The notes beneath the pieces were generated by a model. It saw only the letters and a program-made list of their open reading frames with translations. It was not told the origin of the DNA and searched no databases. DNA of 64,000 bases. Source: Eledone cirrhosa (taxonomy: Eukaryota). Numbering within the stretch: the first letter of the stretch is position 1; the number at the start of each line of letters is the position of its first letter. Of this stretch, positions 42,077-63,805 are shown one piece after another. The translations under genes were made by a program, and so were the position numbers. Location: positions 40,486,001 to 40,550,000 of the forward strand of contig OZ024754.1 of NCBI GenBank assembly GCA_964016885.1. The letters are read 5' to 3'.

Positions 42077-43845
42077 ATGTATATATATATATATATCATC
42101 ATCATCATTTAATGTCAATTTTTCCACGCTGGCATGGGTTAGACTAGTTATCCTGTTGTGAGCAATGCTAGGTCAGGTGACAATGTCTTGCTCATACAGA
42201 ACTGATATTAGATTGATTTTTACAGCTGGATGTCCTTCCTTGTGCCAACCACATTTACAGTGAGTACTAGATGCTTTTTTGTCGTGGCGCCTACACGAGC
42301 ACTTTACATTGTGGGCTGGGCGCTTTTTTGCTGCGACACCTACATGACCACTTTACAGTGTGTGCTGGGCGGATTTATAATATATATATATACATATATA
42401 TTCATTTTATTAAGGCTGAATAGTGAGTCTTGTTACTCCGGAGTTTCGCCTGCAGGCAAAACTTCAGAGTAACAAGACTCACTATTCAGCTTTAAAAAAA
42501 TGAATATATATATATATATAAGATCTCTTAAGCTCCTTAGGCCAATGCTTATCCTGGTTTCATGGCGTGAAGCAACTGAGAGTATGGACCACAAGCAATA
42601 CCTTTCCATGTATTTCCCAGCTATTAATCAATATTTGTATTCTTATTGGTGTTTTTCTTGTGTCTGTGATTGATGAGTTAACTCATAGCATATCTCTTCT
42701 CTCACTTATTCCTGAGAGGGTGGTGAGGGCAAAGTCCTCAAACAGTTTTTTTTCTTCTTTTTCTTCTCAGTATCAAAGCCAAGGAACTTTGTTGAGGAAA
42801 CCCCAACTATATCAAGCCAGTAGCATTTGGCCTCCTCCACTAGTTCCTGCAAGAGTTGGGATGTTCCAGGTTCCAACTATCAAGGTTTGCTCCCTTCCAG
42901 ACCCTCTTTGGGGGTATCAGGATATGCAACCTTTGTGTGGCCATCCCACACCTCCTACACCAGTTTTTGCAGCAGCAAATGGAGACTGAAACATAACCCC
43001 ATCCCCCCATTACCAATTCATTATTATACTGTTTTTCAAAACCTGGAATAATAGTGAGAGTTCAAATCCCCCCAAGGTCAGCTTTGCCTTTCATCCTTCT
43101 GAAGATTCATGATCCTGGCATCACCATATACCAACCAAAGGTTCCATTACCTTGGAATGATTTAATGACTAAACCTTTCCAGCTTGGATGAAGTTGTCAG
43201 TGTTTCCACAGTTGGATAAAGAGTAAAGACCCCCTTTGGTCACAAATGGCCATGGGATTTACACCTAGAAAGTTCCCCCTATGAGGTTCAAGTCCGGGCA
43301 AAGTTGTTTATGGAAGACCAGCAGTTACCTATATATACCAGTCTCACCTCTCAATGCCACCGATGTTGTCCAAGGTAAAGGCAATGGCCAATACAGCTTG
43401 GCATCAGTGACATCACAACTCGTATATACATTATATATACACAATATTTATATATTATGTACAGTATATATTCACTATAGATACTATATATGATGTTGTC
43501 CAAGAGAAAAATAATGGCCAATACAACTTGGCACCAGTGACGTTACAATATATATATATATATATACAGTATATATACACTATATATATATATATACATT
43601 ATATATGATGTTGTCCAAGGGAAAGACAATGGCTGATCCAGCTTGGCTCCAGTGATGTCACAACTCATTTCTATAGCTCAGTAAACTGGAGCAACATGAA
43701 ATAAACTGTCTTGCTCAAGCACACGACACATTGCCCAGTCAACTAAAACTTACATTTATTATTAGTCATAATATTAGTGAAGGCACGAGATAAAGGATGT
43801 CCCAATATAGCTGAAAAATTTAAAGTTGAAGAGATTGTTGGAAGC

Positions 43846-44465
43846 AAGGCCTTTGTCAGCTGCTCTCCAGCTATCTATTTAAAGCTGTATATAGCTATGG
43901 TGCGGCCACACTTGGAATTTGCATCACCAGTCTGGAACCCCTATCTTGCTCAGAACATTGACCTCCTGGAAACTGTTCAGAGATGTGCAACCAAGCGAAT
44001 ACCCTCCATCAGACATCTACCATACTCAGAACGCCTTGCTTCCCTGGGCATGGATACATTGAAACACCGACGTCTGGCAACTGACTTGGTAAACACCCAC
44101 AAAATTATTAACCATCTTGCCAACAACAACCCTGAGCACCTTTTTGATTTCCATGTCTAACACACGTGGGCATGCCAACAAATTCAGAAAACAGCACAGC
44201 TCCCATGACTTTCGGAAACATTTTTTCACACTCAGAGTTGCTGAAGCATGGAACAAACTACCTGCATCAGTTGTTAGCTGTCGAGACACTGCGTCCTTTG
44301 AAACTCCATGCTTCCTGAAATTTGCCAATACTACACCTGATATCCCCCCTCCATACACATGCACACACGTATATCATAACTCATACACTGTTCTCTTTCC
44401 TGACATTTGTACATTATTCTATGTTCTATACATGCACCTGAGCACTGTACACAATAATTTCATGA
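43846..44465 (+). mobile_element. CR1/L2-type LINE 3' fragment
   Basis: KLYIAMVRPHLEFASPVWNPY...LETVQRCATKRIP...RKHFFTLRVAEAWNKLP; shorter copies at 7670-7925, 14350-14675 and 55553-55650. Confidence 0.85.
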
Positions 44466-47291
44466 TTACATTGTTATTATTTACCTGGTTTAAAATGTTT
44501 TAAACTTTTACTGTTCAAAGAGAACTATCAAACCACCTGAAAGACTTCATTTGTGACTTTATTATTATGTTAAATTGTATAAACATAAAATCTAATTTCA
44601 GACTGGAGTTAAACAATTACTGTTAATTTTTGCTAATTTTACAATTTCATATTTTATTTGTTTTTAGCCCTTCTTAGAAGAAGAGTGAATGTGATTTTTA
44701 CAGTCTTTTCATAGTTGGATGTATTCGTAATGGTTGAGTTCTCTCCCTTATTTAAACCGGATGTTGAGTTGTAGCATTATTCGTTGAATAAAGACTTTGG
44801 TATACATAGTTTACTTATCGTTGTTGCCAATGACAGATGCATCATCAAAATCAACAAGCATGCTCCTCAGGAATGACATTAAATATTTCATAGAAAAGGA
44901 TACTATCAGGGAGTTAAAAACAACAAATAGGGGCGAAGAATGGTTTTCAAACCCTTTTAGTGTGAGCAGCCATTTGTGATGCTTTCATAGAAGCTTTTGA
45001 GCAGACAACCGGATTAGCAAAGACGAAAAAGATATCAAAATTTCATGGAGCAGTGAAAAGCTAAAATGTTTCAATAAAGAACAGCTTAAACGACCACTGA
45101 GAAGTGATTGTCTAAACCCAACCATAAACATGCATGGCTACAAATACAATGCCAACGTATTGATGAATTCATTTTTGCTGAGAAAGCAAAATAAGTGTGT
45201 TAAACATTTGAAATATTTGCAGATTTCTACCCTCCTACAAATCAAAACATATACTCACTCATTAGCAATAAACATAGAAACAGTGGAAAGAATGAAACTC
45301 TCTCCAGGAAGCCAACTGCTAAACTATACTTAAGGCGGCAAATTAGCAGACTTGTTAAGAATGTCAAATAGAATGCTTTACGGTATTTATTCTGGCTCTC
45401 TGCACTCTGAGTTCAAAACCCACCAAGGTCAAGGGTCAACTTTGCCTTTGATCTTCTTGAAGTTTAAAATGAACATAAAGAGTTGTCTTTTCCTTAAATA
45501 GTCCAGGAATTATGGTTCTATACAGACAAACAAGCTATGCTTTCATCTCTGAAGTAAATAAAACAATGAAAGATAACTGCTAAATTGATTCTGTTCAGTA
45601 TCAATGTAAACAATATTAAAAAACATAGGAGAGAATAGATATTGAACTGAAGTTTGGCAAATCTGAGAAACTTGTAACTCCCGAGTTTCTAATTCTGCTC
45701 ACCAGAACACGAGACAAAATTTTAATAGCAAAATGGATTAGATCTGGTATAGATACTTCAGATGTTATACAAGGACTTTTACAGAAAATAGCTGAAATAT
45801 GTCTGAAGCCTTCTTCACCTTCTTAGAACACTACAGAAAAGCACCCAATAGTCAGTCACACAGCTATTTCATATCAACAGTAAAATGCGCTTTCCAATAT
45901 ATATCTCACTTCATTTAAACCAGAAAGAGGTTCATGAGAAACTAGAGATTAATACTTCTGAATGTCCAATATTTAAAGGACTTGGATATGTATATACAAG
46001 ATATGTATATATTAGATATTTATAATGTAAACCACCATGATTATGATGATGATGATATTCAGATAAGGGATCTCAACCAATATGATGCTAGTTTTCCAGG
46101 TAAGGGACCTAAACCAATGTGATGCTAGTTTTCCAGGTAAGGGACCTCAACCAACAACAGCAAACAGTTTAAGCCTATTTTCCCAGGTAAAGCAAGATTT
46201 CATATTGATCTAGTCCTATTTGAGGCAATGTTTTACATCTGGATGCCCTAATGGACCTCAAGAACAACAACATTCATTAGACAAAAGATATTGCTCTAAT
46301 CAGTGAGAATATTAAGAAATGGTTTAGTGAAAGAGATGATGACGATGATAGATAGCTACTAATGCTGAAGTCAGCTGCACCTTAAACTCCCTCAAGAACT
46401 AATCAAGTAAATAAAGGAAACATTTCTAGGGTTATTCAATTTAAATAATTATGTTCCTTCAAAACCAATAGACTGTTCAATCGACTTTTCTGCTTGTATT
46501 GATATAACAAACCTATGGAGCAATAGAGAACTACTTCCAAGAGGCTGAAAGTGAAGACTGAGAAATAAATGATATTGATTGATAGAGCTGTGATAGAGAG
46601 GTGCAAACCTGAACATTGAATGCATGAATTAATGAAATATGTGTGTATATATATAAGTATGTATGTATAATGTGGTGAGTTGTGCATGTGGAGAATATTA
46701 CGTATTTGGTGGGAGGAAAGGAGCAAAAGATGACAGCATATAAGAGGAACTCGAGTTTACTATTCATGGGCAAATGTGGTGCCTTTCTGGGTTTCTGGGT
46801 GTGAACTTTCAAAGGCTTTTAGAAAACAGCAATGAAACATTGAGAGAGAGGGGTGAGACAGAGAGAACCTATACTCAGTATATGGACAACATATGTTCAT
46901 AGATATACAGATGTAGCTAGATAATAAGTGTTGAAACAAAATAAATGAGAAGTGTAATAAAGAGTTGCAAATAAATGGTTGTTCCAAAAATGGTGGAAAA
47001 ACAATAATAATCCATCAGTTGAGATGCTGAGAAGAAGATTTATTCTTGTTTGTCTCAATTACGCTTTTTCCTGGTTATCTTTCCCCAGTATATTACTGGT
47101 TGAGTTTTACTAGAATGAAGAGTGTGTGAGATTTTAGATCAGTAGTAGTAGTAGTAATGAAAATGTAAAGAAATGCACTAAGTTAAGATCATGTGATCAC
47201 AATGGTGTTGGGTTGAAAATATATTCATACACAAGTCCGAATATTTAAATGTCCAAATCATTATATCGCCAGTAGTGTATGTAGCTTGTTT

Positions 47292-47633
47292 TCATTCGAT
47301 TACAGAAGTGAAAGAATCTGAACTTTGTAAAACTGATATTTTGGTTTGTGGTAGCTTAGCTTTTAGCTTGTCATTTAGTTGCCTTATGTTAATTTGAACT
47401 ATAGAGTTATCATTTGAAAAGTTATTATTCAGGTTGGAAAAACATTGGTCGTCTTGTGACTGGAAAGGAATTAATTCCGAGTTATCTTGGGAACTTTTTC
47501 CATATGAATTCATTTCAATGTCAGTCACAGTTTGAGACTCAGAGATCTTATTTTGGACAACACCCCATTCCAGAAACTTCAGATTCTTCAGTTTTGTTAC
47601 CAAGGCAAATGTATTGCTGTTTATCATGGCAGG
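47292..47633 (-). CDS. Terminal coding exon (LKNLKFLEWG...LKAKLPQTKISV...stop)
   Basis: taatag| acceptor; typical FBXL C-terminal LK..LP..KI motif; TGA at 47294-47292. Confidence 0.87.
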   Translation of the reverse strand, partial: PAMINSNTFALVTKLKNLKFLEWGVVQNKISESQTVTDIEMNSYGKSSQDNSELIPFQSQDDQCFSNLNNNFSNDNSIVQINIRQLNDKLKAKLPQTKISVLQSSDSFTSVIE

Positions 47634-47844
47634 CTATTAAAATAAAAAAAATAGAATACATTAGATTAAATCAAAGTGTGTACATCATCATCATTATCAT
47701 CATTTAACAGTCGTTTTCCCTGTCAGTAGGGTTGGACAGTTCATCACAGACTGTGTTAGTATTCAAAAGAAGTTACTGACCTTTCAAATTATCTATAGGG
47801 GAGTTTGAGAGAGAGAGAGAGTGAGACAGACAGTCAAAGAGAGG

Positions 47845-47900
<56 letters not shown>

Positions 47901-47942
47901 GAAAGAGAGAGAAAGAGAATTAGCTATCTGTAATGTTCTCAC

Positions 47943-48054
47943 CTGATGTGTTGTATCAGGCCAAATCACCAATTTTGAAAGATTGCTCAACAGACTAATG
48001 TTGGTGTGTAGTTCATCAGATATGACAAAGAGCATTAGTTCAAGTTGCTTTAAA
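47943..48054 (-). CDS. LRR exon (LKQLELMLF...LSNLSKLVIWP)
   Basis: tttcag| ... |gtgaga; 112 nt. Confidence 0.87.
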
Positions 48055-48084
48055 CTGAAAGAGAAATTGATCCATAGTTAAACA

Positions 48085-48503
48085 TTGCAACAACAGCTAA
48101 ACCTACATAAGTGTGAGCTTTAACAACACAACAACAGCTAAACCTACATAGGTGTGAGCTTTAACAACACAACACCAGCTAAAACTACATAGGTGTGAGC
48201 TTTAACAACACAACAACAGCTAAACCTACATAAGTGTGAGCTTTAACAACACAACAACAGCTAAACCTACATAAGTGTGAGCTTTAACAACACAACAACA
48301 GCTAAACCTACATAGGTGTGAGCTTTAACAACACAACAACAGCTAAACCTACATAAGTGTGAGCTTTAACAACACAACAACAGCTAAACCTACATAAGTG
48401 TGAGCTTTAACAACACAACAACAGCTAAACGTACATAGGTGTGAGCTTTAACAACACAACAACAGCTAAACCTACATAAGTGTGAGCTTTAACAACACAA
48501 CAC
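48085..48503. repeat. 41-bp tandem repeat filling most of an intron
   Basis: caacaacagctaaacctacataagtgtgagctttaacaaca. Confidence 0.9.
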
Positions 48504-48539
48504 CATTAGTATAAATGAAAGGCAATAAATGTTACTTAC

Positions 48540-48646
48540 CATTTCAGGTTGCCTAATGCCTTCGCCAAACTAACATCATTTAAACTACCACCAAGTTCAA
48601 GGCGGAGTCTTTCAAGATTTACAAGTTTGCCCAGCTGGAAATATGT
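48540..48646 (-). CDS. LRR exon (TYFQLGKLVNLERLRLELGG...)
   Basis: ttatag| ... |gtaagt; 107 nt. Confidence 0.88.
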
Positions 48647-48779
48647 CTATAAAAAGATAAATTGAAGATCAATTTAGAAAATAGTAGGGAAACTATCTCA
48701 TACAAGGACTCCCAACTTCCTTATTTACTGGGTTCTGTTGCAACCAACCATTCATAAGTCATTTAAATACCTATAGATT

Positions 48780-49770
48780 GGCATCTCGACTCGCTGCACC
48801 AGTGACAAAACTAGAGTGGCACCCCAACGACTGGCTAAACCAGTGGCACCATAATGACTGGCTGAACCAGTGGCACATCTAGAGTGACATCCTGACTCGC
48901 TGCTCCAGTGGAAAATCTAAAGTGGCACCACAATGACTGGCTGTACCAGTGGCACATCTAGAGTGGCACCCCAACGACTGGCTGTACCAGTGGCACCCCA
49001 ATGACTGGCTGCACCAGTGACACCCCAATGACTGGCTGCATCAGTGGCACCCCAACAACTAGCTTCATCAGTGGCACCCCAAAAACTAGCTGCACCAGTG
49101 GTACCCCGACTGGCTGCAACTGTGGCACCCCAACGACTGGCTGTACCAATGGCACATCTAGTGTGGAACCCCAATGACTGGCTGTGCCAGTGGCACATCT
49201 AGGGTGGCACCCCAATGACTGGCTGCACCAGTGGCACATCTAGGGTGGTACCCCAACAACTGGTTGTACCAGTGGCACCCCAACGACTGGCAGTACCAGT
49301 GGCACCCCAACGACTGGCAGCACCAGTGGCACCCCAACGACTGGCAGCACCAGTGGCACCCCAACGACTGGCAGCACCAGTGGCACCCCAACGACTGGCT
49401 GTACCAGTGGCACCACAACGACTGGCTGTACCAGTGGCACCCCAACAACTGGTTGTACCAGTGGCACCCCAACGACTGGCAGCACCAGTGGCACCCCAAC
49501 AACTGGTTGTACCAGTGGCACCCCAACGACTGGCAGCACCAGTGGCACCCCAACAACTGGTTGTACCAGTGGCACCCCAACGACTGGCTGTACCAGTGGC
49601 ACCCCAACGACTGGCAGCACCAGTGGCACCCCAACGACTGGCAGCACCAGTGGCACCCCAACGACTGGCAGCACCTGTGGCACCCCAACAACTGGCAGCA
49701 CCAGTGGCACCCCAACAACTGGCAGCACCAGTGGCACCCCAACGACTGGCAGCACCAGTGGCACCCCAAT
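48780..49770. repeat. 27-bp minisatellite (ccagtggcaccccaacgactggcagca)
   Basis: 9-aa periodic ORFs in multiple frames. Confidence 0.93.
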
Positions 49771-49847
49771 AATTGATTGGTACATTTATCATCTTTATTT
49801 CATGTTTATCATTATAGATGAAGGTTTAAGATCTCATAACACCCTAC

Positions 49848-49952
49848 CTCAGATGTCCAGTTGGTACATTCTCCCAATTCCAATACTTTCAGGCTACGCA
49901 GTTCTCCTAAGTAATCAAAATCGTGATCACTGGCTTTCAAAGACGTAATTGA
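49848..49952 (-). CDS. LRR exon (SITSLK...LGELRSLKVLELGECTNW)
   Basis: ttgcag| ... |gtaggg; 105 nt; LxxLxLxxC. Confidence 0.88.
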
Positions 49953-50019
49953 CTGCAAAAATATAAAATTCCAATGATTTAAAACAAACAATAAACAACA
50001 GCGAAATATTTTACAAAAA

Positions 50020-51530
50020 TCTCAAAATATATTTATATATAAAAAAAAGCAGAAATATATTTATATATAAAAAAAAAGCAGAAATATATTTATATATAAA
50101 AAAAAGCAGAAATATATTTATATATAAAAAAAAGCAGAAATATATTTATATATAAAAAAAAGCAGAAATATATTTATATATAAAAAAAAGCAGAAATATA
50201 TTTATATATAAAAAAAAGCAGAAATATATTTATATATAAAAAAAAGCAGAAATATATTTATATATAAAAAAAAGCAGAAATATATTTATATATAAAAAAA
50301 AGCAGAAATATATTTATATATAAAAAAAAGCAGAAATATATTTATATATAAAAAAAAAGCAGAAATATATTTATATATAAAAAAAAGCAGAAATATATTT
50401 ATATATAAAAAAAAGCAGAAATATATTTATATATAAAAAAAAAGCAGAAATATATTTATATATAAAAAAAAAGCAGAAATATATTTATATATAAAAAAAA
50501 GCAGAAATATATTTATATATAAAAAAAAGCAGAAATATATTTATATATAAAAAAAAGCAGAAATATATTTATATATAAAAAAAAGCAGAAATATATTTAT
50601 ATATAAAAAAAAGCAGAAATATATTTATATATAAAAAAAAGCAGAAATATATTTATATATAAAAAAAAGCAGAAATATATTTATATATAAAAAAAAAGCA
50701 GAAATATATTTATATATAAAAAAAAAGCAGAAATATATTTATATATAAAAAAAAGCAGAAATATATTTATATATAAAAAAAAGCAGAAATATATTTATAT
50801 ATAAAAAAAAAGCAGAAATATATTTATATATAAAAAAAAGCAGAAATATATTTATATATAAAAAAAAAGCAGAAATATATTTATATATAAAAAAAAAGCA
50901 GAAATATATTTATATATAAAAAAAAGCAGAAATATATTTATATATAAAAAAAAAAAGCAGAAATATATTTATATATAAAAAAAAGCAGAAATATATTTAT
51001 ATATAAAAAAAAGCAGAAATATATTTATATATAAAAAAAAAGCAGAAATATATTTATATATAAAAAAAAGCAGAAATATATTTATATATAAAAAAAAGCA
51101 GAAATATATTTATATATAAAAAAAAAGCAAAAATATATTTATATATAAAAAAAAGCAGAAATATATTTATATATAAAAAAAAAGCAGAAATATATTTATA
51201 TATAAAAAAAAGCAGAAATATATTTATATATAAAAAAAAGCAGAAATATATCTATATATAAAAAAAAAGCAAAAATATATTTATATATAAAAAAAAGCAG
51301 AAATATATTTATATATAAAAAAAAGCAGAAATATATTTATATATAAAAAAAAGCAGAAATATATTTATATATAAAAAAAAAGCAGAAATATATTTATATA
51401 TAAAAAAAAGCAGAAATATATTTATATATAAAAAAAAAGCAAAAATATATTTATATATAAAAAAAAGCAGAAATATATTTATATATAAAAAAAAAGCAAA
51501 AATATATTTATATATAAAAAAAAAGCAAAA
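50020..51530. repeat. About 28-bp AT-rich minisatellite (aaaaaaaagcagaaatatatttatatat)
   Basis: Direct inspection; variable A-run length. Confidence 0.95.
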
Positions 51531-51816
51531 GAAGAAAAGGAGGCAATTTTTGGATTGAACCAAAGAAATTATATTTCCATTTTTACCATTGATTTTTTTT
51601 GGTTACATATTCCTCAGCTTATATTCGAGTATATATGGTATGTTAGAAGAATTTAATTTAAATATGAAACATTTAAAATGGAGTGGTGTAGGTGATAGAA
51701 CCAGAAACAGTTTTAGGCAGAGTGGTATCAAAAGGGTTGATATGTAGTATATTAAAAAGCTTAAAAAAAAAAAAAGTTTTTTAAATTAAAATTAAAAGTG
51801 TGGTGGGTTTACTTAC

Positions 51817-51961
51817 AAGATGTCGAAGATACTTCAGTTTAATCAATTCAAAGATCCCAGATGGAAAAGAAGCAATTAAACCTCCAGTGCCACGCAGTTG
51901 TAATTTCTTCAACATTTTTACACTACAAAACTTGGTTAAGTCAATCTTGGTTGGAGTTGTC
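51817..51961 (-). CDS. LRR exon (TTPTKIDL...LKKLQLRG...LKYLRHL)
   Basis: tattag| ... |gtaagt; 145 nt. Confidence 0.87.
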
Positions 51962-52029
51962 CTAATAATTGGAGACAGTAAAAGATTACTTAAGAGAATT
52001 ATATATATATTAACAGATCATAAAATTAA

Positions 52030-52400
52030 TAATGGTTTCTACACAAGGCCAGCAATTACCCAGTACATTACTGGTACTTTATTTTATCGACCCCGTAAGG
52101 ATGAAAGGCAAAGTTGACCTCGGCGGGATTTCAACTTAGAATGGCAAGGGCCGTAACTCTATGCGTCAAAGCATGGCGTCCGATACTGCCAATCCACATA
52201 TCATAAAATTAATAATTGTTTCTATTTTGGGCACAAGGCCAGCAATTACCCAGTGCATTACTGGTATTTTATTTTATCGACCCCCGTAAGGATGAAAGGC
52301 AAAGTTAACCTCGGCGGGATTTGAACTCAGTCCGTAAAGGGACGTAACTGTGCTGCAAAGCATGGCGTCCGACCCTCTACCGATACTGCCAATTCACCAC
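52030..52400 (-). mobile_element. Two tandem tRNA-derived SINE copies
   Basis: Same family, reverse orientation. Confidence 0.85.
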
Positions 52401-52900
52401 CTAAAATTAATAATGGTTTCTAATTTTGCCAATTGTCATACTTAGTGGCGACTCCCCCCCTCTTTTTCCTTCTTTCTTTCCATTATCATTTTTGTTCATG
52501 ATTTTATATTTGTTATTACTTGTGTATATATTTAAAACATATTTGCAACGTTATTCTACTATAAATTTATACAACCGTAATAATCAAAATGATACTATTT
52601 TTAATAAATTTAGGCACAATTTTGAGGAAGTGAAAAACTGATTAAATTGGCCTCAGTGCATTACTGGTACTTTATTTTATTGACCCCATCACTACTACTT
52701 TACAGAGTGTACTGGGTGTATTTTATCGCGACATCAGCACTATCACTTTACAGAGCTGTACTATTTATTAATAACTTTAGATTGGAGTTATAAAATTGTT
52801 TGTCTTATGTAGTAATATTTTGGATAATCCTATGAAAAAAACATCCCCTGGAAACAGCAAAATGTTCAAAAAAGTAGAGTTAGAAATAAATACAACATAC

Positions 52901-53103
52901 CACTGCTGTTCATTGCTGATATCACTTATCTTTTTAGCTGTCAACTCTTGTAAATTGGGAAGTTTCTCACAGACAGTATACAGCATGAGAGCAGGTACAT
53001 GATCAAAATAGATTCGTTTTATTGTGCTCAATTGATCTAGGACAGGAGTTAGTTGGTGCCAAATACGGTTCCAGTCGTCACCAAGCTTCATTCCTTGCAG
53101 ACT
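52901..53103 (-). CDS. LRR exon (SLQGMKLGDDW...CEKLPNLQELTAKKIS)
   Basis: ttgtag| ... |gtatgt; 203 nt; acceptor lies in the last transcribed copy of a 65-bp tandem array. Confidence 0.85.
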
Positions 53104-53535
53104 CTACAACAAACAGTTAAAATAACACTTCACAGTTTTGAAACAACGAGCTTCATTCCTTGCAGACTCTACAACAGATATTTAAGATAACACTTCACAG
53201 TTTTGAAACACCAAGCTTCATTCCTTGCAGACTCTACAACAGATATTTAAGATAACACTTCACAGTTTTAAAACAACGATCTTCATTCCTTGCAGACTCT
53301 GCAACAGATATTTAAGATAACACTTCACAGTTTTGAAACACCAAGCTTCATTCCTTGCAGACTCTACAACAGATATTTAAGATAACACTTCACAGTTTTG
53401 AAACACCAAGCTTCATTCCTTGCAGACTCTACAACAGATATTTAAGATAACACTTCACAGTTTTAAAACAACGAGCTTCATTCCTTGCAGACTCTGCAAC
53501 AAACAGTTAAGATAACACTTCACAGTTTTAAAACA
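53084..53535. repeat. 65-bp tandem repeat x7 overlapping an exon's 3' splice site
   Basis: Units start at 53084, 53149, 53214, 53279, 53344, 53409 and 53474. Confidence 0.93.
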
Positions 53536-53875
53536 AGACAAAAGAAACACAAAACAATATCTGAAGTTGTGTGGTTAAGTTAGTTCACTACACAACGACA
53601 TAAGGTTCAGTCCCACCGTGTGGAACTTTGGGAAAGTTTCTTCTAATATAGCCTTGAGATAATCAATGTTTTACAAGTGAAATTCAGTAGACAGAAACTG
53701 CAGAAGCCTATCGTGTCTGTGTGTCTTCATGTTTGTGTTTGTCCACGTTCATGTCTGTGTATTCGTGTGTGTCCATGTGTGTGTGTGTGTGTGTAGAAAG
53801 AGGGAGAGAGAGAAAAGAGAAATAGATTGTAAAAGAGATTTTATAAAAGGTTTTATAAATATCTATAAAAAATGT

Positions 53876-53951
53876 AATATAGAAATGGCTTCTACATGAT
53901 GATTTCTTTCGAATGAAACAGTTCTAGTCCTGCAGAAGCCATTTCTATATT
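53876..53951 (+). ncRNA. Degenerate family A hammerhead copy inside a short inverted repeat
   Basis: Same stem II/III sequence, but the core reads ATGATGA and CTGCA; flanks form the inverted repeat aatatagaaatggcttct/agaagccatttctatatt. Confidence 0.45.
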
Positions 53952-54645
53952 AAATTTTGTATACACTCTACTAATGTATTGAGTACTTCACTTAGTGTGG
54001 TTACTCCCGACAGCACTCGGAAACCAATATATATATATATATTGGTTGAGGGCACATGGCTTAGTGGTTAGAGCATTGGCCTTGCAATCGAAAGGTTGTG
54101 AGTTCAATTCTCAGACCGGGTGATGTGTTGTTTCCTTGAGCAAGACACTTTATTTCACATCGCTCCAGTTTACTCAGCTGTAGAAATGAGATGATAGGGA
54201 CTGGGGTCCCTATCATTCCACTGTAAAGTGGTTGTGGTGGTGCCATGGCAAAAAAGCACCCAGCACTCACTGTAAATGAGGTTGGTGTTAGGAAGGGCAT
54301 CCAGCTGTAGAAATCAAGCCAGAATCAGTTCCCGTCCCACCCTTGCAAGCAGGGAAAAAGCGGACGTAAAATGAAATGATGATGATGAAATGATGATATA
54401 TATATATACACGTGTGTTATTATATCAAATATTTTGTGATTAGAGACCCTTTTTTCAAAACATGGAGTATGATGATGATGATGAGCAGACTCTACTGTAT
54501 TCACTCATGTCTTTCTAACTTAACTTATACGAACTTACCCAACCCAATCCTGACCACTGAATTCACAACGCTTCATATAAACTATAATATTTAAAGTAGG
54601 TTTTATTAAGTTTTATATAAACTATGGGAATGTTTTGAAACTTAC

Positions 54646-54732
54646 CAATTCTTCAACAGCAAATTTGCTAAAATGTTTTGTGGCATATGTCCAATTAGAA
54701 ATTCTGGTGTTGTTTAAATAAATGCTTTTCCA
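54646..54732 (-). CDS. F-box end/LRR start exon (WKSIYLNNTRISNW...)
   Basis: tttcag| ... |gtaagt; 87 nt. Confidence 0.87.
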
Positions 54733-55037
54733 CTGAAATGAAAATAATAATTATTAGCAGTGTATGTGATTGTAAGTATGCAGACATGACCAAATAAATT
54801 ATCATGATGTCCACTAATTTCAAGACATCATTAACCTTTTCATGGCACCTATATTGATCGTGCCAGCTCTGAAATTATGGGGTTCACAGGAGGAATAAAG
54901 AGAAAGCTAAATCAGTTCTAAACAGTGCCCCGGCATGGTCGCAGTCTAATGACTGAAGCAAGTAAAAAATAATAAATAAATAAGAGAATAATATATTTGA
55001 AGGTAATAATTAAAAAGTAATAAAATATGAGACTTAC

Positions 55038-55089
55038 CAGAGAAGGCTGAGTAGCAATTTGGTGCCATGATTTACATACCAATGAACAT
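55038..55089 (-). CDS. F-box exon (CSLVCKSWHQIATQPSL)
   Basis: taacag| ... |gtaagt; 52 nt; F-box VCKxW motif. Confidence 0.9.
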
Positions 55090-55986
55090 CTGTTAGAACA
55101 GGTGAGAAAATATAGATAGGTTATAATCAATATAATTAGATCAATACTATTTAAATAACTTATAATATAATATCAAATAATAATAATCATCATCATCATC
55201 ATTTTACGTCCGCTTTTCCCTGCTTGCAAGGGTGGGACGGGTCCTATTCAGCACAGCCTCTCTCCACTTATCATGGCCCTTCGTCATCTCCACCGTGAGC
55301 TTCAGCAATCTGAGGTCTGTTCTCACCACCTCTGCCCATGTTTTTCATGGTCTTCCTCTACTACGTCTTCCTTCAACTGGCATTTCTTGGCACTTCTTTA
55401 CCCAGTGGTCATCCTCATGCGCATCACATGTCCATACCATCGCAGTCTTCTCTCCCGCAAACTACAACTTATCCCTCTTATACACAGTTTCTCTCTCAAC
55501 ACATCCATGCTCGGTCGTTTACGCACATTGACATTGCACATCCAACCACTACATCAGTTGTTAGCTGTTGGGACACTACATCCTTCAAAATTTCCATGCG
55601 TCCCGAAATTTGCCAACACTACATCTGATATTCCCCCTACATACACACGCACCTGTGTGTCTGTGTGTGTGTGTCAATTTCAGAATTAACTTAATCCTTT
55701 AGCATTTAAACTGGCTATATCTGGCCAGAATTCTCTCAGCTCTTTCTGTTCAAACCAGCCGTAACTGGCCTTTCATACAGATGTTAAGGCGTTGTTCTCA
55801 AAATAAATATCAAAATCTCAGATTCGATATTATGTAAGATAAAGCCTTTACCACAAAAATACAATAGTATATATAGAGTAATGGAAATGTTATGTGAGAT
55901 AATTATGTGAGGTAAAGCCTTTACCATGAAAATATTATAATAAATATAGAGTTATGTAAATGGTAAATGGTTAATGAGAAACTTAC

Positions 55987-57188
55987 CTGACAAGATCTCC
56001 CGCACTTAAGTAGTGAAATATCTGTAGCATACTTGTGTAACCAGAGTATAACCTCTTGAAAGGACACAGATAGTTAGTAATTTTGTTTCTGCAATTTGGG
56101 ATTTTGCCGCTTGTTTTTGCAGATTCGGAACTTTTATTTTGATCTACAACTTGATTGCTTTCACTTGATTTGTTCTTTTCAGAGAGAGATACAGCGTAAT
56201 CTTTGGTACTATCACCAGACATAGTACCTGATGAAAATGTTATATTCATTGTGGTTGTCGAGCCACTGGGTACAGAGAACGTCTTGGGTGGCAGAAAAAC
56301 CTTTAAGCCTTCCGGTGTATTTATGCAACGAGATGGGGGGATAAAAAGCTGCATGTTATTAATACGTAATGCAAGAGGAAGAGAGGAATCTAAGCGCTTT
56401 GCTACAGCTAACGGCAATGTAAGAAGCTGGCCAGAGCGTGGGTAATTGTCTTTGCCACTATCACCACTATCACCAACATTACTAGATATGGTAGAAGATG
56501 AAGATGGAACTTCTAGTTTAACATTGGCTGATGATATATTCGGCTGCTGTGAGTGACCAGAAGTAAGAGAAGATTTGGGCGATGAAACGAGTACTGGACA
56601 ATCAGATGATGATGAGGTAGAAGCATTCAAGTCTTTTGTAGTTTGAATAAATGAATTAACACTTGTAGAAGGACTGTTAATAAGAGTAAATGTGGTAGGT
56701 GTAGAAGTTTCACCAATACTATCTTTTGACAATGGAGAAGAAAGTGAATGAGATATGGATGATAATGTCTGAGACAAACTTTTTGATGGATTTAATGAAT
56801 TATTAGATTTATTGGATTTCAAGCGAGATTTGCAATCTAGGATATCTGAAGTTGACTCTATGTCATTTAGATAATAAGGTTGTGATGGTTCAGATGATAA
56901 TGAGTCAGTAATTGACTGACCACTCAAGCTAGATTTAACAATGTTCATGACAACATATTTAGGAGGTCCATTTGAAGTATTTTTTGATGACTTGGAAGAA
57001 GATTTCTGTGTTTGAGATGAATACTTTGTATCTTTACATAATTGAATGACAGACGACATGCCAGATTTCCGCCCCTTTTCTGTACTCCATGAACTCTGGT
57101 TCATCTTTAGTGTTCTATTACCTGACAAACTATTAGACGCTGTCGTGTCAACATCGCTCATCCAACCACCTTGTTCTCTTTCACAGTT
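55987..57188 (-). CDS. Large exon: end of PHD, Ser/Thr-rich linker, start of F-box (SMLQIFHYLSAGDLVR)
   Basis: tttcag| ... |gtaagt; 1202 nt; contains ORF 55983..57161. Confidence 0.9.
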
Positions 57189-57299
57189 CTGAAATGAATG
57201 AAAGCAAAAGAATTAATTAATTAAATCCTCCAAACAAAGAATGTAATTCTAAATCAGTTTCATTCCAAGATAAAAAAATAAGAAAGAGCTTATAGCATA

Positions 57300-57502
57300 T
57301 ACGAGGGTAAGATGAAAAGTTCATAGACTGACTATGAAGGAGTGATGCTAGAGTTGTGAAATCTTGCATGTCGTTTATTTCAACTCTTCTCATTAATAAA
57401 TTCATTGTTTCTTTCCAGGGACTATGTTGAAAAATAAACCTCATTTGGTTATTCCATGGGAGTATCTTAGTCAGCCTATGAACTGTTTAGCCGACCCTCG
57501 TA
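57300..57502. mobile_element. mariner-type MITE (TA TSD, CGAGGG TIRs); related copy at 29130-29331
   Basis: TA-CGAGGG..AAAAGTTCATAG.CTGAC ... GTCAGCCTATGAAC..CCCTCG-TA. Confidence 0.7.
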
Positions 57503-57541
57503 TTTTAAGAATAAGGTTGACATAACTATAAAAGTACTTAC

Positions 57542-57704
57542 TTTACATTTGAAATTTTGTGGCACCTCATTTTCTTTGAGGTTTACACAGGAATTATGAA
57601 ATAGACACATGCATACATCACAGTGCAGTTGAGGGGGAATGCCTGTAAGGCCTGGACAGTTGAGCGAACATGGTTGGAAAGAATTTCTTTTGTTCATATT
57701 AGCT
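57542..57704 (-). CDS. PHD finger exon (CSLNC...CDVCMCLFHNSC...CK)
   Basis: ttgcag| ... |gtaagt; 163 nt; C4HC3 pattern completed by NC at the start of the next exon. Confidence 0.88.
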
Positions 57705-58871
57705 CTGCAAGAAATGTAAATTGAAACTTACGAAAAATTCTTATTTCTGGAGGTCAAATAAACAACCAAGCATTAATATACACAATATTATACTAGCAGA
57801 TACGTAACCAAAGTGTCATGCAGTGGGACAATCATTTTATATATCTCCTTATAATATATAACCAGCAATTTCTCTGTCTGTCTGTCCGACGCGGAGAGTG
57901 AGAGTGAAAGAAAGAGACAGACTACAAGAGGGGGATAGCGGGAGGGAGAGAGAGAGAGACGCTGGAAGAGGGGAAGGAAAGCTATGTCTTGCTGTCTGCA
58001 TTACGATACATATATATATACACACACACACACTGAGCGCGTCATAATAACGTAATGCAGACAGCCAGACATACAGACAGATATTATAAGGGCGCAACGT
58101 TATATCTATGTATCTATCTAAAAAGAAAGACTAAGAATTATATAGAGAGAACGCTAAATCGTCTAATGCGGTCCCTAGGGCATTGAAAATTTGAAATAAT
58201 TTTTGCTCAAAACACTCACAGGACCATAAGTATTACATGTCTAAAGTTTAAAAACAATCGGTTGGATGGTTCTCAAGTTTTAGTGAGCTGACAGACAGAC
58301 ATTCTCTGTTTTAGATATATAGACTAGCAGAAAACCGCCCCCCTGGGTGGTTTTCTGCTAGTCTATATACATAAATGGCAATTTCTGTCTGTTTGTGAAC
58401 CTAAAACTCAAAAACTACCAAACTGATCTTGATGAAACTTGACACGTGTGTAGGGCTCATGCCCCTTTGATTTCTTACGTATATTTCATTTTAATGAAAG
58501 GGTTCCCCAGGGGCTCAAACCCTGCTGAAAATATTTTCCCTTCGATTTATATGAAATTTAAACCATAGGTAAATGACAAGATATGATGCCTATTCACAAA
58601 ATTTCAGCAAATTTAAATAATATTAAGACACCCTAATTGGGGGTTCTATTTTTTCTCTTATAGCAACACTCAACTTCTCTGACAAACATTTTTTCGCCTG
58701 ACCAACGCAATCAACAATATTTGTTTGTATTATTGTTTCGTAAATGAATTTGTCTTCGTTTGTCATTATCTGTCATATATTTCGATTTCATTTTTCGTCT
58801 GAGAGGCACTGGGCATTTTAATGGGAACTAGGAATACAACTGCTCCCGGGTATTACCAGGTACCTCAGCTA

Positions 58872-58951
<80 letters not shown>

Positions 58952-59262
58952 TCATCATCATCATCATCACCGTTTTACGTCCGTTCTTCCACGCTAGCAT
59001 GGGTTAGACGGGTTGTCCTGTTGTGGGCAGTGTCTGGTCGGCTGACCATGCCTTGCTCATACAGGAACTGATCTGGCTTGATTTCTACAGCTGGATGCCC
59101 TTCCTAACACCAACCTCATTTACAGTGAGTGCTGGGTGCTTTTTCGTGGCGCCTACACGTCCACTTTACAGTGGGCTGGGTGCTTTTTTGCCGTGGCACC
59201 TCCACGACCACCTTGCGGTGGGGGGGGGGGGGGGGGGGGGGGGGGCATATTGTTTATATGCT

Positions 59263-59790
59263 TCAGCATGTACCCATGGGAGGTCGGGTACCCTGTATTA
59301 CTGCGTGACGCCAGAAGTCACGGTCGTGTGTCATTGACTTTGAGAGGTGTAGTTGGGTAAGGTCGGCTTTTATCACCTCATCCCAAGTCATCTTGGGTCT
59401 CCCCACTCCGCGGTTTCCATCAACTTCTAGTGCTCTGCACCTTTTTATGCAGCTGTCATCCTTCATACGCATCACATGTCCATACCAGCGTAACCGCCTC
59501 TCCTGCACGCAGCATTTGATTCCTCTTATGCTCAGTCTCTCTCTCAATTCCTTTATGCTTTGTCGTTCACGTATATTACTGTTACACATCCATCGGAGCA
59601 TGCAGGCTTCGTTTCTCTCTAATCTACGTAAGTCTTCCACCTTCAGCGCCCAGGTCTCACTACCATGCAACATCGCTGTTCGGATACACGCATCATACAG
59701 TCTGCCTTTCATTCTGAGGGAGAAGCCTTTTGCAGCTAGCAGTGGTAGTAGTTCCCTAAACTTCTTCCATCCCGTTCTTACCCTAGTTAT
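59263..59790 (-). mobile_element. RTE-clade LINE 3' fragment
   Basis: ORF KGRLYDACIRTAMLHGSETW...RRLRWYGHVMRM...GRPKMTW is the RTE C-terminus; shorter copies at 35440-35760, 55190-55545, 8220-8460 and 60500-60670. Confidence 0.85.
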
Positions 59791-60409
59791 TACTTACCCT
59801 ACACATATATATATATTTATATATATATATATGTGTGTATATATAATAGGTATCAGATTAACAATGAAAATAAAAACAACAAAGTCAAGTTATTTTACCT
59901 ATTCATATCATTGTTTTACGATCGTTTCGGAGGGTTGATTATATTGACATATTGTCTGATCTATAGCAGTTATATAACTGTATACTATCAGACCTCATAT
60001 ATAGGTTCAATCAGACCGTCTTACGGACCCTACCATTAAGGGTAGACCACACTGAAAGAGCATATATATATATATAACAAGTAACATCACTCTAAAGACC
60101 CTCGGAGATCAGAGAGTCACTCCAGGTAGAGCCACTATTTCTCCAAATTGAGAGATTACAGTTCTGATACTATGGAGGACATGTGGTTAGAATGTCTCAG
60201 GAAAAAAAATCGCTGGACAGATTTTACGGTTAAAAACAAACTGGCAGGAGACCCAGGGGTATACTCCAAGCAAGATGGTTGGATAACATCCATTAGATTG
60301 GCTGATCCAACCAGATCAGCTGGAGACAGTTGCTTCTGAAAAGACCCGCTGGAAAGAGTGTTTGAGGACTCTGCCCCCACGACCGTCTCAGGAATAAGTG
60401 GGTAAAGAA

Positions 60410-60444
<35 letters not shown>

Positions 60445-60782
60445 GTTAAAACACAAACAGAGAAGTAATTAAGAATTGTGAGGAATTATATGCTTAGAAT
60501 CCCAGTGGAAGGAAGCTGCAACAGAGGTAAACCAAGGAAGACCTGGGCAGAAGTGGTGAGAACTGATTAAATTACTGAGACTGACAGAGGAGATGATGAA
60601 GGAACGCAGTGAATGGAGAGATGCTGTGCTGAAAAAAGGACCCATCCAAACCATGCAAGCAAGGAAAAACGGTGGTGATGGCAGTGATGATGGTGGTGGG
60701 GATGATGATGTTATGATGGTGATGATGTTAATGATGATGGTAGAAACGAAAACCAGAGAAACGAAAAATAAAATATACTTAC

Positions 60783-61176
60783 AACATTGACTTAGAGATT
60801 AGACTTGTACTTTTGCGAGCAACAGATTTTATTTTCTTGGGAGGTATTTCACTGGAACTTGTTTCCTCTGATCTACGTTTTGACGGCGGAGATTTCCACT
60901 TGGAGTGTTTCTTCACATTTATCTTAGTTTCTAGTTGTAATGATTCATTAAACATGGGCTCTTCTATCAACTGTATATCTGCATCTCCAACACTACTCAT
61001 GGAATCATTGGCTCCGTGAGATTTTTTGTGACTACTCTTCTTACTAGTTTTCTCACTGTCATCGTGACGAGCCCGATGGGTGCCAGCAGTACGTACCATC
61101 TCAAATGGAGTTTTATAAATAGGTCGGCGTAGAAAGTTGAAGTTTTCTGCTGTCAAGCTAGTCTCCCTTTCAGCTA
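60783..61176 (-). CDS. MBD C-terminus (LAERETSLTAENFNF) plus basic/NLS-like region
   Basis: ttgcag| ... |gtaagt; 394 nt; the LT.ENFNF motif is typical of MBD ends; PPSKRR and PPKKIK basic clusters. Confidence 0.85.
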
Positions 61177-62023
61177 CTGCAAAATATCAAGATAAATCAC
61201 ACTGATGTAAGAAAATAACAAAGATATATGAAATATTTATTAAGACTACGTTGGTAGCGACATGTGATGCACATGGATGATAATTGATGGCTTGGGTAGA
61301 TACAGGTGTGGCTGTGTGGGTAAGGAGTTTATTTCACGCTTACATGGTAGGTACAGGTAAGGCTGAGTGGTTAAGGATTCTATTTCACAACCACGTGGTT
61401 TCAGGTTTGGTCCCACTGTGTGATAGCCTCAGATTAACTAATGAAATTTGGTACACTGAAACTGAGTGGAAGCCTATTGTAATATATATGTATGTATGTG
61501 TGTGTGAAATGTTGTAAAGTGATTAGTAATAGGAAGACATCTGGCCATAGAAAGCTTGCCAAACAAAAGATTGGGAGAGACCTTCAGTCGTGTCAAATAT
61601 ATGACCACCTCTCTTGTGTTGGTGCCACAATTAATTGCACTTGTAGAACATAAGACCCCATATAAGTGAAATGCAAATCCCTGGCCTGTCTGGGAGGTCA
61701 GTAGCTCTGTTTCGGTACTGACTCGGTCTGTGAAGACCCATCCAAACTTTGCTAGTTGGGAAGGCAGATGTTATATGATGATGATGATGGTGATAACGAT
61801 GATAGTGGTGGAGGTGGTGGTGGTGATGATGATGTGTGGCTATGTTTATGTTTACTATTCAACAAAGAGATTAATAAAATAAATTATCAGATTTGTAAGA
61901 AAAAGTATTTGGGTGGGGAGGGGATCAATAAGGATTAACTAATCCACCAAAGGCAGTGCCCCAGCATGGCCACAGCCTCACAACTGACAAAAATAAATAA
62001 TAGTATAAAAGTATAATACTTAC

Positions 62024-62051
62024 AGTAATTAACAATTTGTACCATTGATCG
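62024..62051 (-). CDS. MBD micro-exon (RSMVQIVNY), 28 nt
   Basis: tttttag| ... |gtaagt; supplies the MBD RS..I..YL helix; phases fit both neighbours. Confidence 0.82.
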
Positions 62052-62376
62052 CTAAAAAAAGAGAAAATAATATAATATAAAATCATGTTTGAAATATTTA
62101 TAATACTTTAAATACCACAATATGTAAATACCACAATATGTAAATTAATTGAAACAAACATGAAGTGAGCAACTGATTATCAATGGAGTTGAATTTGATC
62201 TGAAACTGTTTTGAAACTAAACTACTGTATATATATATATAATAATAATATTATTTATATTTATATCTACACTATATATAATTATAAACAGGAATGGTCA
62301 GTAATTCATTACCACCTTATTACCAGTAAGAAAAATAGCTCAATGTAAAAACATCAGATGTTTTACAGAGCAGGAA

Positions 62377-63083
62377 TATAAATTACAGAATAATCAAAAC
62401 TATGTTCAAAACATTTTATTGCTGACAATCATTTCTAACCAAACTTTCGTTTGGAAACATCGGAGCACTAGCAAAGTTTAGACATAATTAACCTCCTATT
62501 CCACAGAATATTTAAAGAGTGAAGATGATGTGGTCAGTGGATGCGACAAAGATTATAAAAGAATAATACAACAATTATAGAGGAATTAAAGAAGAAAGTT
62601 ACTCGTAAAACGAGGACCTTAGCAGTACATATGCAAATATATAGAAAGAGTGCAGATGTTTTAGGCATGTACAGAATAACCAGGTAAGAAACAAGCAATG
62701 GTACTAAGCATATATATCACAGTATGGCAAAGGTATCACATAATACATGTGATATATATATGCTTAGTACCATTGCATATGTACTGCTAATGTCCTCATT
62801 TTGCGAGTAACTTTCTTCTTTAATTCCTCTATAATTGTTGTATTATTCTTTTATAATCTTTGTCGCATCCACTGATACTGACCACATCATCTCCACTCTT
62901 TAAATATGACACTGTTAATAACAACACTAACATCTACGTGTCTTTACATTGTTCTGTGGAATAGGAGGTTAATTATATGTCTAAACTTTGCTAGTGCTCC
63001 GATGTTTCCAAACGAAAGTTTGGAAGAAACGATTGTCAGCAATAAAATGTTTTGAACATAGTTTTGATTATTCTGTAATTTAT
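62377..63083. repeat. About 700-bp imperfect fold-back inverted repeat
   Basis: 62377-62636 is the reverse complement of about 62774-63083 apart from small indels; nested inner hairpin at about 62696-62777. Confidence 0.9.
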
Positions 63084-63255
63084 ATATATATATATATATA
63101 TGTTCAATTCTCAGACCGGGTGATGTGTTGTTTCCTTGAGCAAGACACTTTATTTCACATTGCTCCAGTTTACTCAGCTGTAGAAATGAGATGATAGGGA
63201 CTGGGGTCCCTATCATTCCACTGCAAAGTGGTCGTGGAGGTGCCACAGCAAAAAA

Positions 63256-63455
63256 NNNNNNNNNNNNNNNNNNNNNNNNNNNNNNNNNNNNNNNNNNNNN
63301 NNNNNNNNNNNNNNNNNNNNNNNNNNNNNNNNNNNNNNNNNNNNNNNNNNNNNNNNNNNNNNNNNNNNNNNNNNNNNNNNNNNNNNNNNNNNNNNNNNNN
63401 NNNNNNNNNNNNNNNNNNNNNNNNNNNNNNNNNNNNNNNNNNNNNNNNNNNNNNN
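63256..63455. other. Assembly gap (200 N)
   Basis: N run. Confidence 1.
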
Positions 63456-63691
63456 TAAATTTTAACCCTTTAGCGTTTAAACCCATATCCGGCCAGAATT
63501 CTCTCACCTCTATCTGTTCAAACTGGCCTGTAACTACTCATACTGATGTTAAGGTATTGTTCTCGAAATAAATATCATCAAAATCTCATAGATTCAATAT
63601 TATGTGAGATAAATCCTTTTACTGTGAAATACAATAGTATATATAGAATAATGTGAATGCTAAGGGGTTAATATAAAGAGAGGCAAATTAC

Positions 63692-63805
63692 CAGTTTCTT
63701 GTTTTCAGGAGTATAGTAGTAAAATATCAGCTGGTGCTGGCTTTGGTTTGCCTGATTTGGTAAATTCTTTATAAACTGACCGAATAACCACTTCTCTTCT
63801 CCACC
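63692..63805 (-). CDS. MBD exon (GWRREVVIR...PADI/YYYTPENKKL), contains a +1 T frameshift near 63721-63724
   Basis: cctatag| ... |gtaatt; MBD signature GWxR..R...DxYY.P..KKL recovered by removing one T from a T4 run. Confidence 0.8.

Follow-up and report, generated by a model that had tools for sequence, protein, structure and literature searches.

A member of the MBD-Fbox family in Eledone cirrhosa, a candidate SKP1-bound recruiter to CpG DNA

The window analysed here, a 64,000-nucleotide stretch of DNA from Eledone cirrhosa (G000:C14:40486001-40550000 of a 3.0-Gb assembly), contains 13 minus-strand exons of a gene that, as judged from sequence, is real and encodes about 2,100 amino acids carrying a methyl-CpG-binding domain (MBD), a PHD finger, an F-box and leucine-rich repeats (LRRs), in that order. 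The CpG-contact residues of its MBD are invariant across the family to which it belongs, and the usual proline at the start of the F-box is missing. We propose, with a probability of roughly 0.45, that the product contacts CpG DNA and, bound to SKP1, acts as a recruiter to chromatin, more likely as a scaffold than as a CUL1 adaptor. Papers are cited by PMC number. The features of the gene are as follows.

G000:C14:40551602-40554818, minus strand: Ser/Thr-rich upstream exon of 3,217 bp, outside the window
G000:C14:40550535-40550591, minus strand: upstream exon of 57 bp, outside the window
63692..63805, minus strand: MBD exon (strands 1-3, first Arg finger, loop, Asp, Tyr), containing the frame break; uninterrupted in Octopus P0019
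63721..63724, minus strand: run of four T, one base above the orthologous frame; as assembled it leads to a TGA at 63707-63705
63256..63455, unstranded: assembly gap of 200 N, intronic, 266 bases from the frame break
62024..62051, minus strand: MBD exon of 28 bp, second Arg finger and Ser
60783..61176, minus strand: end of the MBD, conserved ExxR extension (predicted extra strand) and basic linker
60806..60820, minus strand: ARKST codons, a histone-H3K9-like motif kept in molluscan orthologues (motif definition, PMC13108219)
57542..57704, minus strand: exon of a PHD-type C4HC3 finger, whose final Cys is encoded by the following exon; no Trp of the kind seen in H3K4me3 readers
55987..57188, minus strand: exon encoding a Ser-rich linker, a folded domain without annotation and the first part of the F-box
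56234..56432, minus strand: beta-rich domain of about 65 residues, no Pfam match; 100% identical to Octopus, present in 28/64 family rows
55038..55089, minus strand: F-box exon
54646..54732, minus strand: exon with the end of the F-box and the first LRR
52901..53103, minus strand: LRR exon, its acceptor inside a 65-bp tandem array with six decoy acceptors upstream
51817..51961, minus strand: LRR exon
49848..49952, minus strand: LRR exon
48540..48646, minus strand: LRR exon
47943..48054, minus strand: LRR exon
47292..47633, minus strand: last coding exon, with the final LRRs, cap and stop codon

Gene model and family membership

The 13 exons that the initial annotation had spliced, from 63805 down to 47292, all have canonical AG/GT ends, and exons 2-13 join into a single open frame of 979 amino acids that closes with a TGA; every peptide that the annotation quoted is present in the window sequence. 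Its placement of the gene start at 63805 did not hold, because two further coding exons, of 57 bp and 3,217 bp, lie upstream of the window. The full model of 15 exons yields one 2,108-codon open frame, provided that one T is skipped in the run at 63724-63721, and its first Met is codon 8, near the start of the Octopus protein P0019. The LRR exon beginning at 53103 overlaps a 65-bp tandem array of 7 copies (53082-53536) that copies its acceptor and first bases; each of the six decoy acceptors upstream of 53103 would, if used, lead to a stop after 12 codons.

P0019, the Octopus vulgaris orthologue (in a cluster shared with O. sinensis), is 62% identical to the gene product overall. Identity is 85% in the MBD, 96% in the PHD finger, 100% in the domain preceding the F-box, 89% in the F-box and 90% in the LRRs, as against 52-63% in five linker and terminal regions. 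The proposed order of MBD, F-box and LRRs on one gene is borne out by the collinear exons and by the presence of both MBD and F-box in P0019, and we reject a separate gene for the MBD exons on the strength of P0019 and of 64 proteins carrying MBD and F-box together. Profile searches sustained part of the proposed domain set: in P0019 the MBD (46.8 bits, cut-off 21), F-box-like (52.1 bits, cut-off 24.3) and F-box (34.7 bits) entries of Pfam were over their cut-offs, whereas LRR_14 fell just short (39.3 bits, cut-off 40). The PHD exon of the gene has C4HC3 spacing but, at 16-19 bits, stays under the cut-offs of Pfam. An AlphaFold model of the Lottia orthologue, made from a 46-row alignment, shows the MBD, the PHD finger, a 65-residue beta-rich domain and the F-box-LRR part as confident blocks joined by low-confidence linkers.

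A profile built from the MBDs of seven molluscs matched 574 proteins at E <=0.001. From the best 150 of these 574 we assembled a family set of 64 stored proteins with an MBD (>55 bits) and an F-box, after removal of six same-cluster isoforms; 50 have the PHD finger, 57 have LRRs and 28 have the domain preceding the F-box. The MBD model of the gene itself scores 126.6 bits on the mollusc-orthologue profile, and MBD and F-box stand on one polypeptide in 14 of 16 homologue matches, the other two being one partial model and one divergent model. Three of the four MBD-Fbox rows in Table S3 of PMC6673714 have counterparts, judged by eye, among the proteins retrieved: Tribolium in P0120, Capitella in P0042 and Strigamia in P0079. 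On this sequence evidence the gene is a member of the MBD-Fbox family of that paper. The family was named in 2019 by de Mendoza et al. (PMC6673714), who grouped it with BAZ2 and SETDB, apart from the MBD1-4/MeCP2 clades. The supposition of the initial annotation that invertebrate MBD and F-box predictions might exist was thus overtaken by a family already named, while its statement that no functional characterisation was known stands, in that our literature search found no functional study of MBD-Fbox.

Members named among the matches listed include bivalves, gastropods, octopus, the brachiopod Lingula, the nemertean Tubulanus and the annelid Capitella, and in arthropods a spider, ticks, a mite, a scorpion, a horseshoe crab, a sea spider, a prawn, beetles, a moth, a cricket, thrips and hemipterans. 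Within the 30 named clusters, drawn from the best 150 of 574 matches, all are protostomes and none is a deuterostome or cnidarian. We take Drosophila CG2247 to be a possible, unverified fly member. Three papers, as far as their available text goes, describe it as nuclear and as affecting melanisation transcripts, and do not give its domains. For the arthropod matches that we scanned, we rejected the idea that they are MBD-R2, since they showed no Tudor domain and one THAP fragment only. A set of rows in Table S3 is presumably MBD-R2-like. These rows stand apart there, and the MBD-Fbox clade of the table has no Drosophila row (PMC6673714).

The public annotation of P0019, P0163-P0165 and P0175 as 'serine-rich adhesin for platelets' is a misnomer arising from low-complexity regions; other orthologues of the family are annotated as 'uncharacterized'. 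P0043 (Aplysia) and the similar P0050 have an extra C-terminal PHD finger about 1,100 residues past the F-box, and lack ARKST.

Elsewhere in the window, exons of a kinesin motor domain lie on the minus strand at 342-2278; we take this kinesin, from its motifs, to be kinesin-3/KIF16B-like. The upstream neighbour is probably a membrane lipid-phosphate phosphatase-like gene, recognised by eye in a 202-codon open stretch on the minus strand at about 92600-93200 in window-extended coordinates. Minisatellite arrays are many and long (116-bp x47, 28-bp x53, 27-bp x19 and more; sites include 19789-25229, 50025-51523 and 48962-49769), and decayed reverse-transcriptase ends of retrotransposons without long terminal repeats were recognised by eye from translations at 59266-59793 and 43747-44500.

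Contact residues and fold of the MBD

The claim that the methyl-CpG-contacting residues of MeCP2 have positional equivalents in this gene was confirmed by alignment to MBD2, from which we took the contact positions (the MeCP2 residue numbers being those of the initial annotation): Arg, Asp, Tyr, Arg and Ser are invariant in 65/65 rows. Several of these five residues are lost in the BAZ2 and SETDB rows of Table S3 in PMC6673714. The initial annotation was also right that the loop is longer, with 17 residues from the first Arg to the Asp against 9 in MBD2, although it is variable and spans 10-18 residues across the family. We read the conservation of the five residues, in rows that were chosen by similarity, as selection on a putative base-contacting surface of the MBD.

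The fold points in another direction. The best PDB sequence match of the MBD is the TAM domain of BAZ2B, with an E-value of 3.9e-10 as against 5.4e-7 for MBD2, and it ranked first in a second search too. In structural comparison, the MBD model gave Z-scores of 6.7 to BAZ2B (root-mean-square deviation, rmsd, 2.7 over 74 aligned residues), 6.2 to SETDB2 and 6.0-6.1 to BAZ2A (these being tied), compared with 4.4 to MBD2, 4.7 to MeCP2 and 5.0 to MBD4, most MBD1-4/MeCP2 rows lying at 4.0-5.0. No MBD-family rows other than BAZ2 chains stay aligned as far as model residue 88, through the last predicted strand. This predicted TAM-like extra strand carries the ExxR motif, which is found in 63/64 rows.

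These observations favour a reading in which the MBD is a non-canonical module of the TAM or SETDB type that would bind RNA, DNA backbone or protein, its conserved residues serving that ligand or the fold. Both relatives offer precedents, as the SETDB MBDs bind the protein C11orf46 and not methyl-DNA (PMC13108219) and the BAZ2B TAM has no methyl preference (PMC10783490). We nevertheless regard this reading as rather unlikely. BAZ2 and SETDB have lost Asp/Tyr/Ser or the arginines, which MBD-Fbox never does; Z differences of 1-2 are modest at this size; and in a single-domain model built from seven sequences the last strand has a predicted local distance difference test score (pLDDT) of 54-66, though it reaches 88-94 in the full model.

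How far the contact set implies recognition of methylation is a separate matter. The arginine fingers of MBDs are described in PMC8600091, which also reports that in the BAZ2A TAM a fourth strand tilts strand 1 and that restoring both arginines gave no methyl-CpG recognition. The Tribolium member, P0120, keeps all five contact residues, yet bisulfite sequencing of Tribolium embryos found no CpG methylation (PMC6220294), and the Tribolium MBD2/3 row of Table S3 in PMC6673714, which is truncated, shows Met at the Tyr position. In octopus, gene-body methylation is present (PMC9476566), and both DNMT1, whose exons include the PCQ motif, and SKP1 have exons in the E. cirrhosa genome. From sequence, we place the chance that this MBD would prefer methylated CpG at about even.

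The ratio of observed to expected CpG is 0.31 in the window and 0.36 in the coding sequence of the gene, consistent with germline methylation. Among the stored proteins, P0145, P0153, P0155 and P0157 are family-type MBD fragments with Asp->Glu or Ser->Thr changes, possibly from lineages in which DNA methylation was lost.

F-box output, linker motifs and the reading frame

In the Lottia model the F-box-LRR part is confident (pLDDT mostly >90) and is predicted to adopt an FBXL-type fold, with Z-scores of 24.5 to FBXL2 (rmsd 3.9, 322 aligned) and 24.2 to FBXL17 (rmsd 3.4, 318 aligned), the next row being at 19.8. The F-box core itself is good, but no more than 3/64 family rows have a proline 6-8 residues ahead of it. 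Judged by eye, the same proline occurs at 23 of 30 other F-box loci of the genome, which were found with a profile that favours it; 3 loci lack it, KDM2 among them, and 4 were unclear.

The initial annotation had likened the gene to FBXL19 and KDM2, and sequence comparison upholds this in part: KDM2B is the top PDB match of the F-box-LRR part at 42.9 bits, but is tied with SKP2 at 41.6 bits. When the family F-box-LRR profile was run on 11 segments from the same genome, KDM2 was best at 57.9 bits and the next scored 44.8. In the KDM2 gene (G000:C28:63676170-63686660), a single open stretch of 441 codons encodes both the F-box and the LRRs.

In purifications of FBXL19 from embryonic stem cells, SKP1 was present and CUL1 and RBX1/2 were absent; FBXL19 recruits CDK-Mediator and KDM2B recruits PRC1, and the authors conclude that FBXL19 resembles KDM2B in bringing proteins to chromatin and not in targeting them for degradation (PMC5997449). 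The reference list of the same paper cites substrates of SCF-FBXL19, so that both modes are on record. PMC3685328 reviews how CxxC domains bind CpG islands that are unmethylated. Because FBXL19 is found with SKP1 but without CUL1 and RBX, the analogy drawn in the initial annotation argues no less for a scaffold than for a ligase.

The mechanism originally put forward, taken in full, was that the MBD picks out gene-body CpG that is methylated, the F-box builds SKP1-CUL1-RBX1 and a chromatin substrate held by the LRRs is ubiquitinated. The five invariant contact residues, the nearest folds in FBXL2 and FBXL17 and the presence of DNMT1 and SKP1 in the genome are in keeping with it. We consider it unlikely all the same, given the TAM-like extra strand and the BAZ2A restoration result, the full residue set kept in Tribolium where embryos lack CpG methylation and MBD2/3 shows Met at the Tyr position, the proline missing in 61/64 rows, and the absence of CUL1 from FBXL19 in embryonic stem cells.

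The C4HC3 spacing of the PHD finger is found in the gene and in 50/64 rows. In readers of H3K4me3, a Trp two residues before the His, the position it has in PHF2, forms part of the cage. When aligned to PHF2, this position holds Leu in 42 of the 50, Met in 6, Phe in 1, His in 1 and Trp in 0, and since none of the 50 fingers has the Trp, the PHD finger is probably not an H3K4me3 reader.

Between MBD and F-box, ARK[ST] occurs in 22/64 rows, as against 1.3 expected from composition, and in 21 of the 22 it reads ARKST and stands shortly before the PHD finger. ARKST is found in 15/16 named molluscs (the exception being Aplysia) and 0/18 named non-molluscs. The clustering is explained by shared ancestry, yet the motif persists in a divergent linker. 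A(R/K)K(S/T) is a histone-mimic motif methylated by G9a/GLP, and automethylation of SETDB1 at such a motif supports HP1 binding (PMC13108219). The 65-residue beta-rich domain had no Pfam match and no usable atlas match. Its presumed resemblance to AbrB-type hairpins is a lead only.

The initial annotation treated DIYYYTP as a continuous peptide and overlooked a frame break that interrupts it. In this assembly, two parts of the MBD, GWRREVVIR...PADI and YYYTPENKKL, lie in different frames: the four T at 63724-63721 are one base too many, the first frame ends at the TGA at 63707-63705, and the protein as assembled comes to an end partway through the MBD, at residue 1,124. The tblastn alignment of the protein P0012 changes frame at the T-run, and P0019 reads through the site uninterrupted. 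As the Octopus orthologue reads through and the downstream domains are 89-100% identical to it, the break is very probably a consensus error of the assembly. A true break in E. cirrhosa, making the gene a young pseudogene or null allele truncated at 1,124 residues, would fit the four T and TGA as assembled and our finding no second copy of the MBD exon in a genome search, but is very unlikely: the 6,328 coding bases show no other lesion, and this one falls in a homopolymer at a distance of 266 bases from a gap, with every splice site intact and with domain identities of 89-100% against 52-63% in linkers, which argue for purifying selection until at least recently.

Proposed role and comparison with known systems

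In the proposal we prefer, a SKP1-bound recruiter, the MBD would use two arginine fingers to hold on to DNA that contains CpG, the F-box would bind SKP1, and the LRR solenoid would deliver a partner protein to the MBD-bound site. A scaffold like KDM2B and FBXL19 would be more likely than a CUL1 adaptor for degradation. In molluscs, ARKST would serve as a site at which H3K9 methyltransferases modify the protein and readers of the HP1 type bind to it.

Several observations weigh against this proposal. The structure-nearest F-box-LRRs are FBXL2 and FBXL17, with KDM2B absent from the best 50 rows, and the structure of FBXL17 was solved as that of a ubiquitin ligase. A 26-row tree with long branches gave the family no clear sister group and did not place it with KDM2. 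The argument from the F-box draws on general background as to the importance of its proline for CUL1 binding. The 65 MBD rows were chosen with a profile from seven molluscs, which favours conserved residues, and include near-duplicates. With BAZ2B, BAZ2A and SETDB2 as its closest relatives in fold, the MBD could use its conserved residues for another ligand. Finally, with a basic PPKK stretch ahead of it, ARKST may instead belong to a nuclear localisation signal.

On the readout of gene-body methylation in invertebrates, the papers that we checked on the toolkit of molluscs and annelids treat MBD2/3 and MBD4 only, and neither PMC11050768 nor PMC8330077 contains the word 'box'. Here, a family kept from octopods to beetles combines the full CpG-contact set with an F-box-LRR output. 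If its MBD binds methyl-CpG, this would be a new reader with a new output; if not, an MBD can keep the contact residues without reading methylation. In its furthest form, which we hold to be doubtful, MBD-Fbox would be a third, protostome-specific methyl-CpG reader that evolved a working arginine-finger site on a TAM-type fold: a methylated-DNA counterpart of FBXL19/KDM2B and the missing gene-body effector. It would carry SKP1, together with a partner or substrate bound by the LRRs, to genes that are methylated; the molluscan proteins would themselves be marked on the H3K9-mimic motif and so coupled to HP1/UHRF1-type readers.

The closest known system is MBD-Fbox as described in PMC6673714, with the same MBD clade and the same pairing of MBD and F-box; the available text of that paper names it as an outgroup only and makes no mention of the PHD finger, the LRRs, the extra strand, ARKST, the 65-residue domain or a function. 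The canonical readers MBD2/3 and MBD4/MeCP2, both present as separate genes in this genome, have all five contact positions in common with MBD-Fbox. They differ in having a 9-residue KSG-type loop rather than 10-18 variable residues, and a three-strand sheet without the TAM-type extension rather than a predicted extra strand; unlike MBD2/3 and MBD4, MBD-Fbox has a C-terminal extension of the MBD and no coiled coil or glycosylase.

The TAM domains of BAZ2A and BAZ2B are the best match in sequence and structure, including the predicted strand after the helix, and several bivalve orthologues share with BAZ2 an AT-hook-like motif after the MBD. Part of the Arg/Asp/Tyr/Arg/Ser set is absent from these TAM domains, whereas the MBD-Fbox family keeps all of it, and BAZ2 proteins carry, besides a PHD finger, a DDT domain and a bromodomain, neither of which was matched on P0019. 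A separate BAZ2-like exon lies elsewhere in this genome.

On the output side, FBXL2, FBXL17 and SKP2 pack the F-box on the LRR solenoid as MBD-Fbox is predicted to do (Z about 24 to FBXL2 and FBXL17), and differ from it at 14-18% identity, MBD-Fbox having chromatin-reader domains and lacking the proline at the start of the F-box. FBXL19 and KDM2 differ in reading DNA through a CxxC domain, where MBD-Fbox has an MBD, no JmjC and no match to CxxC or to PF16866, the KDM2-type PHD. The PHD finger of the genome's own KDM2 scores 12.4 bits on the family PHD profile, compared with 65.4 for the PHD model of this gene, and the F-box-LRR exon of that KDM2 is intron-free, whereas the F-box of this gene is split by two introns. 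Yet the short forms of KDM2A/B, and FBXL19, have the same order of DNA-reading domain, PHD finger, linker, F-box and LRRs as MBD-Fbox, and the KDM2 F-box likewise does without the usual proline.

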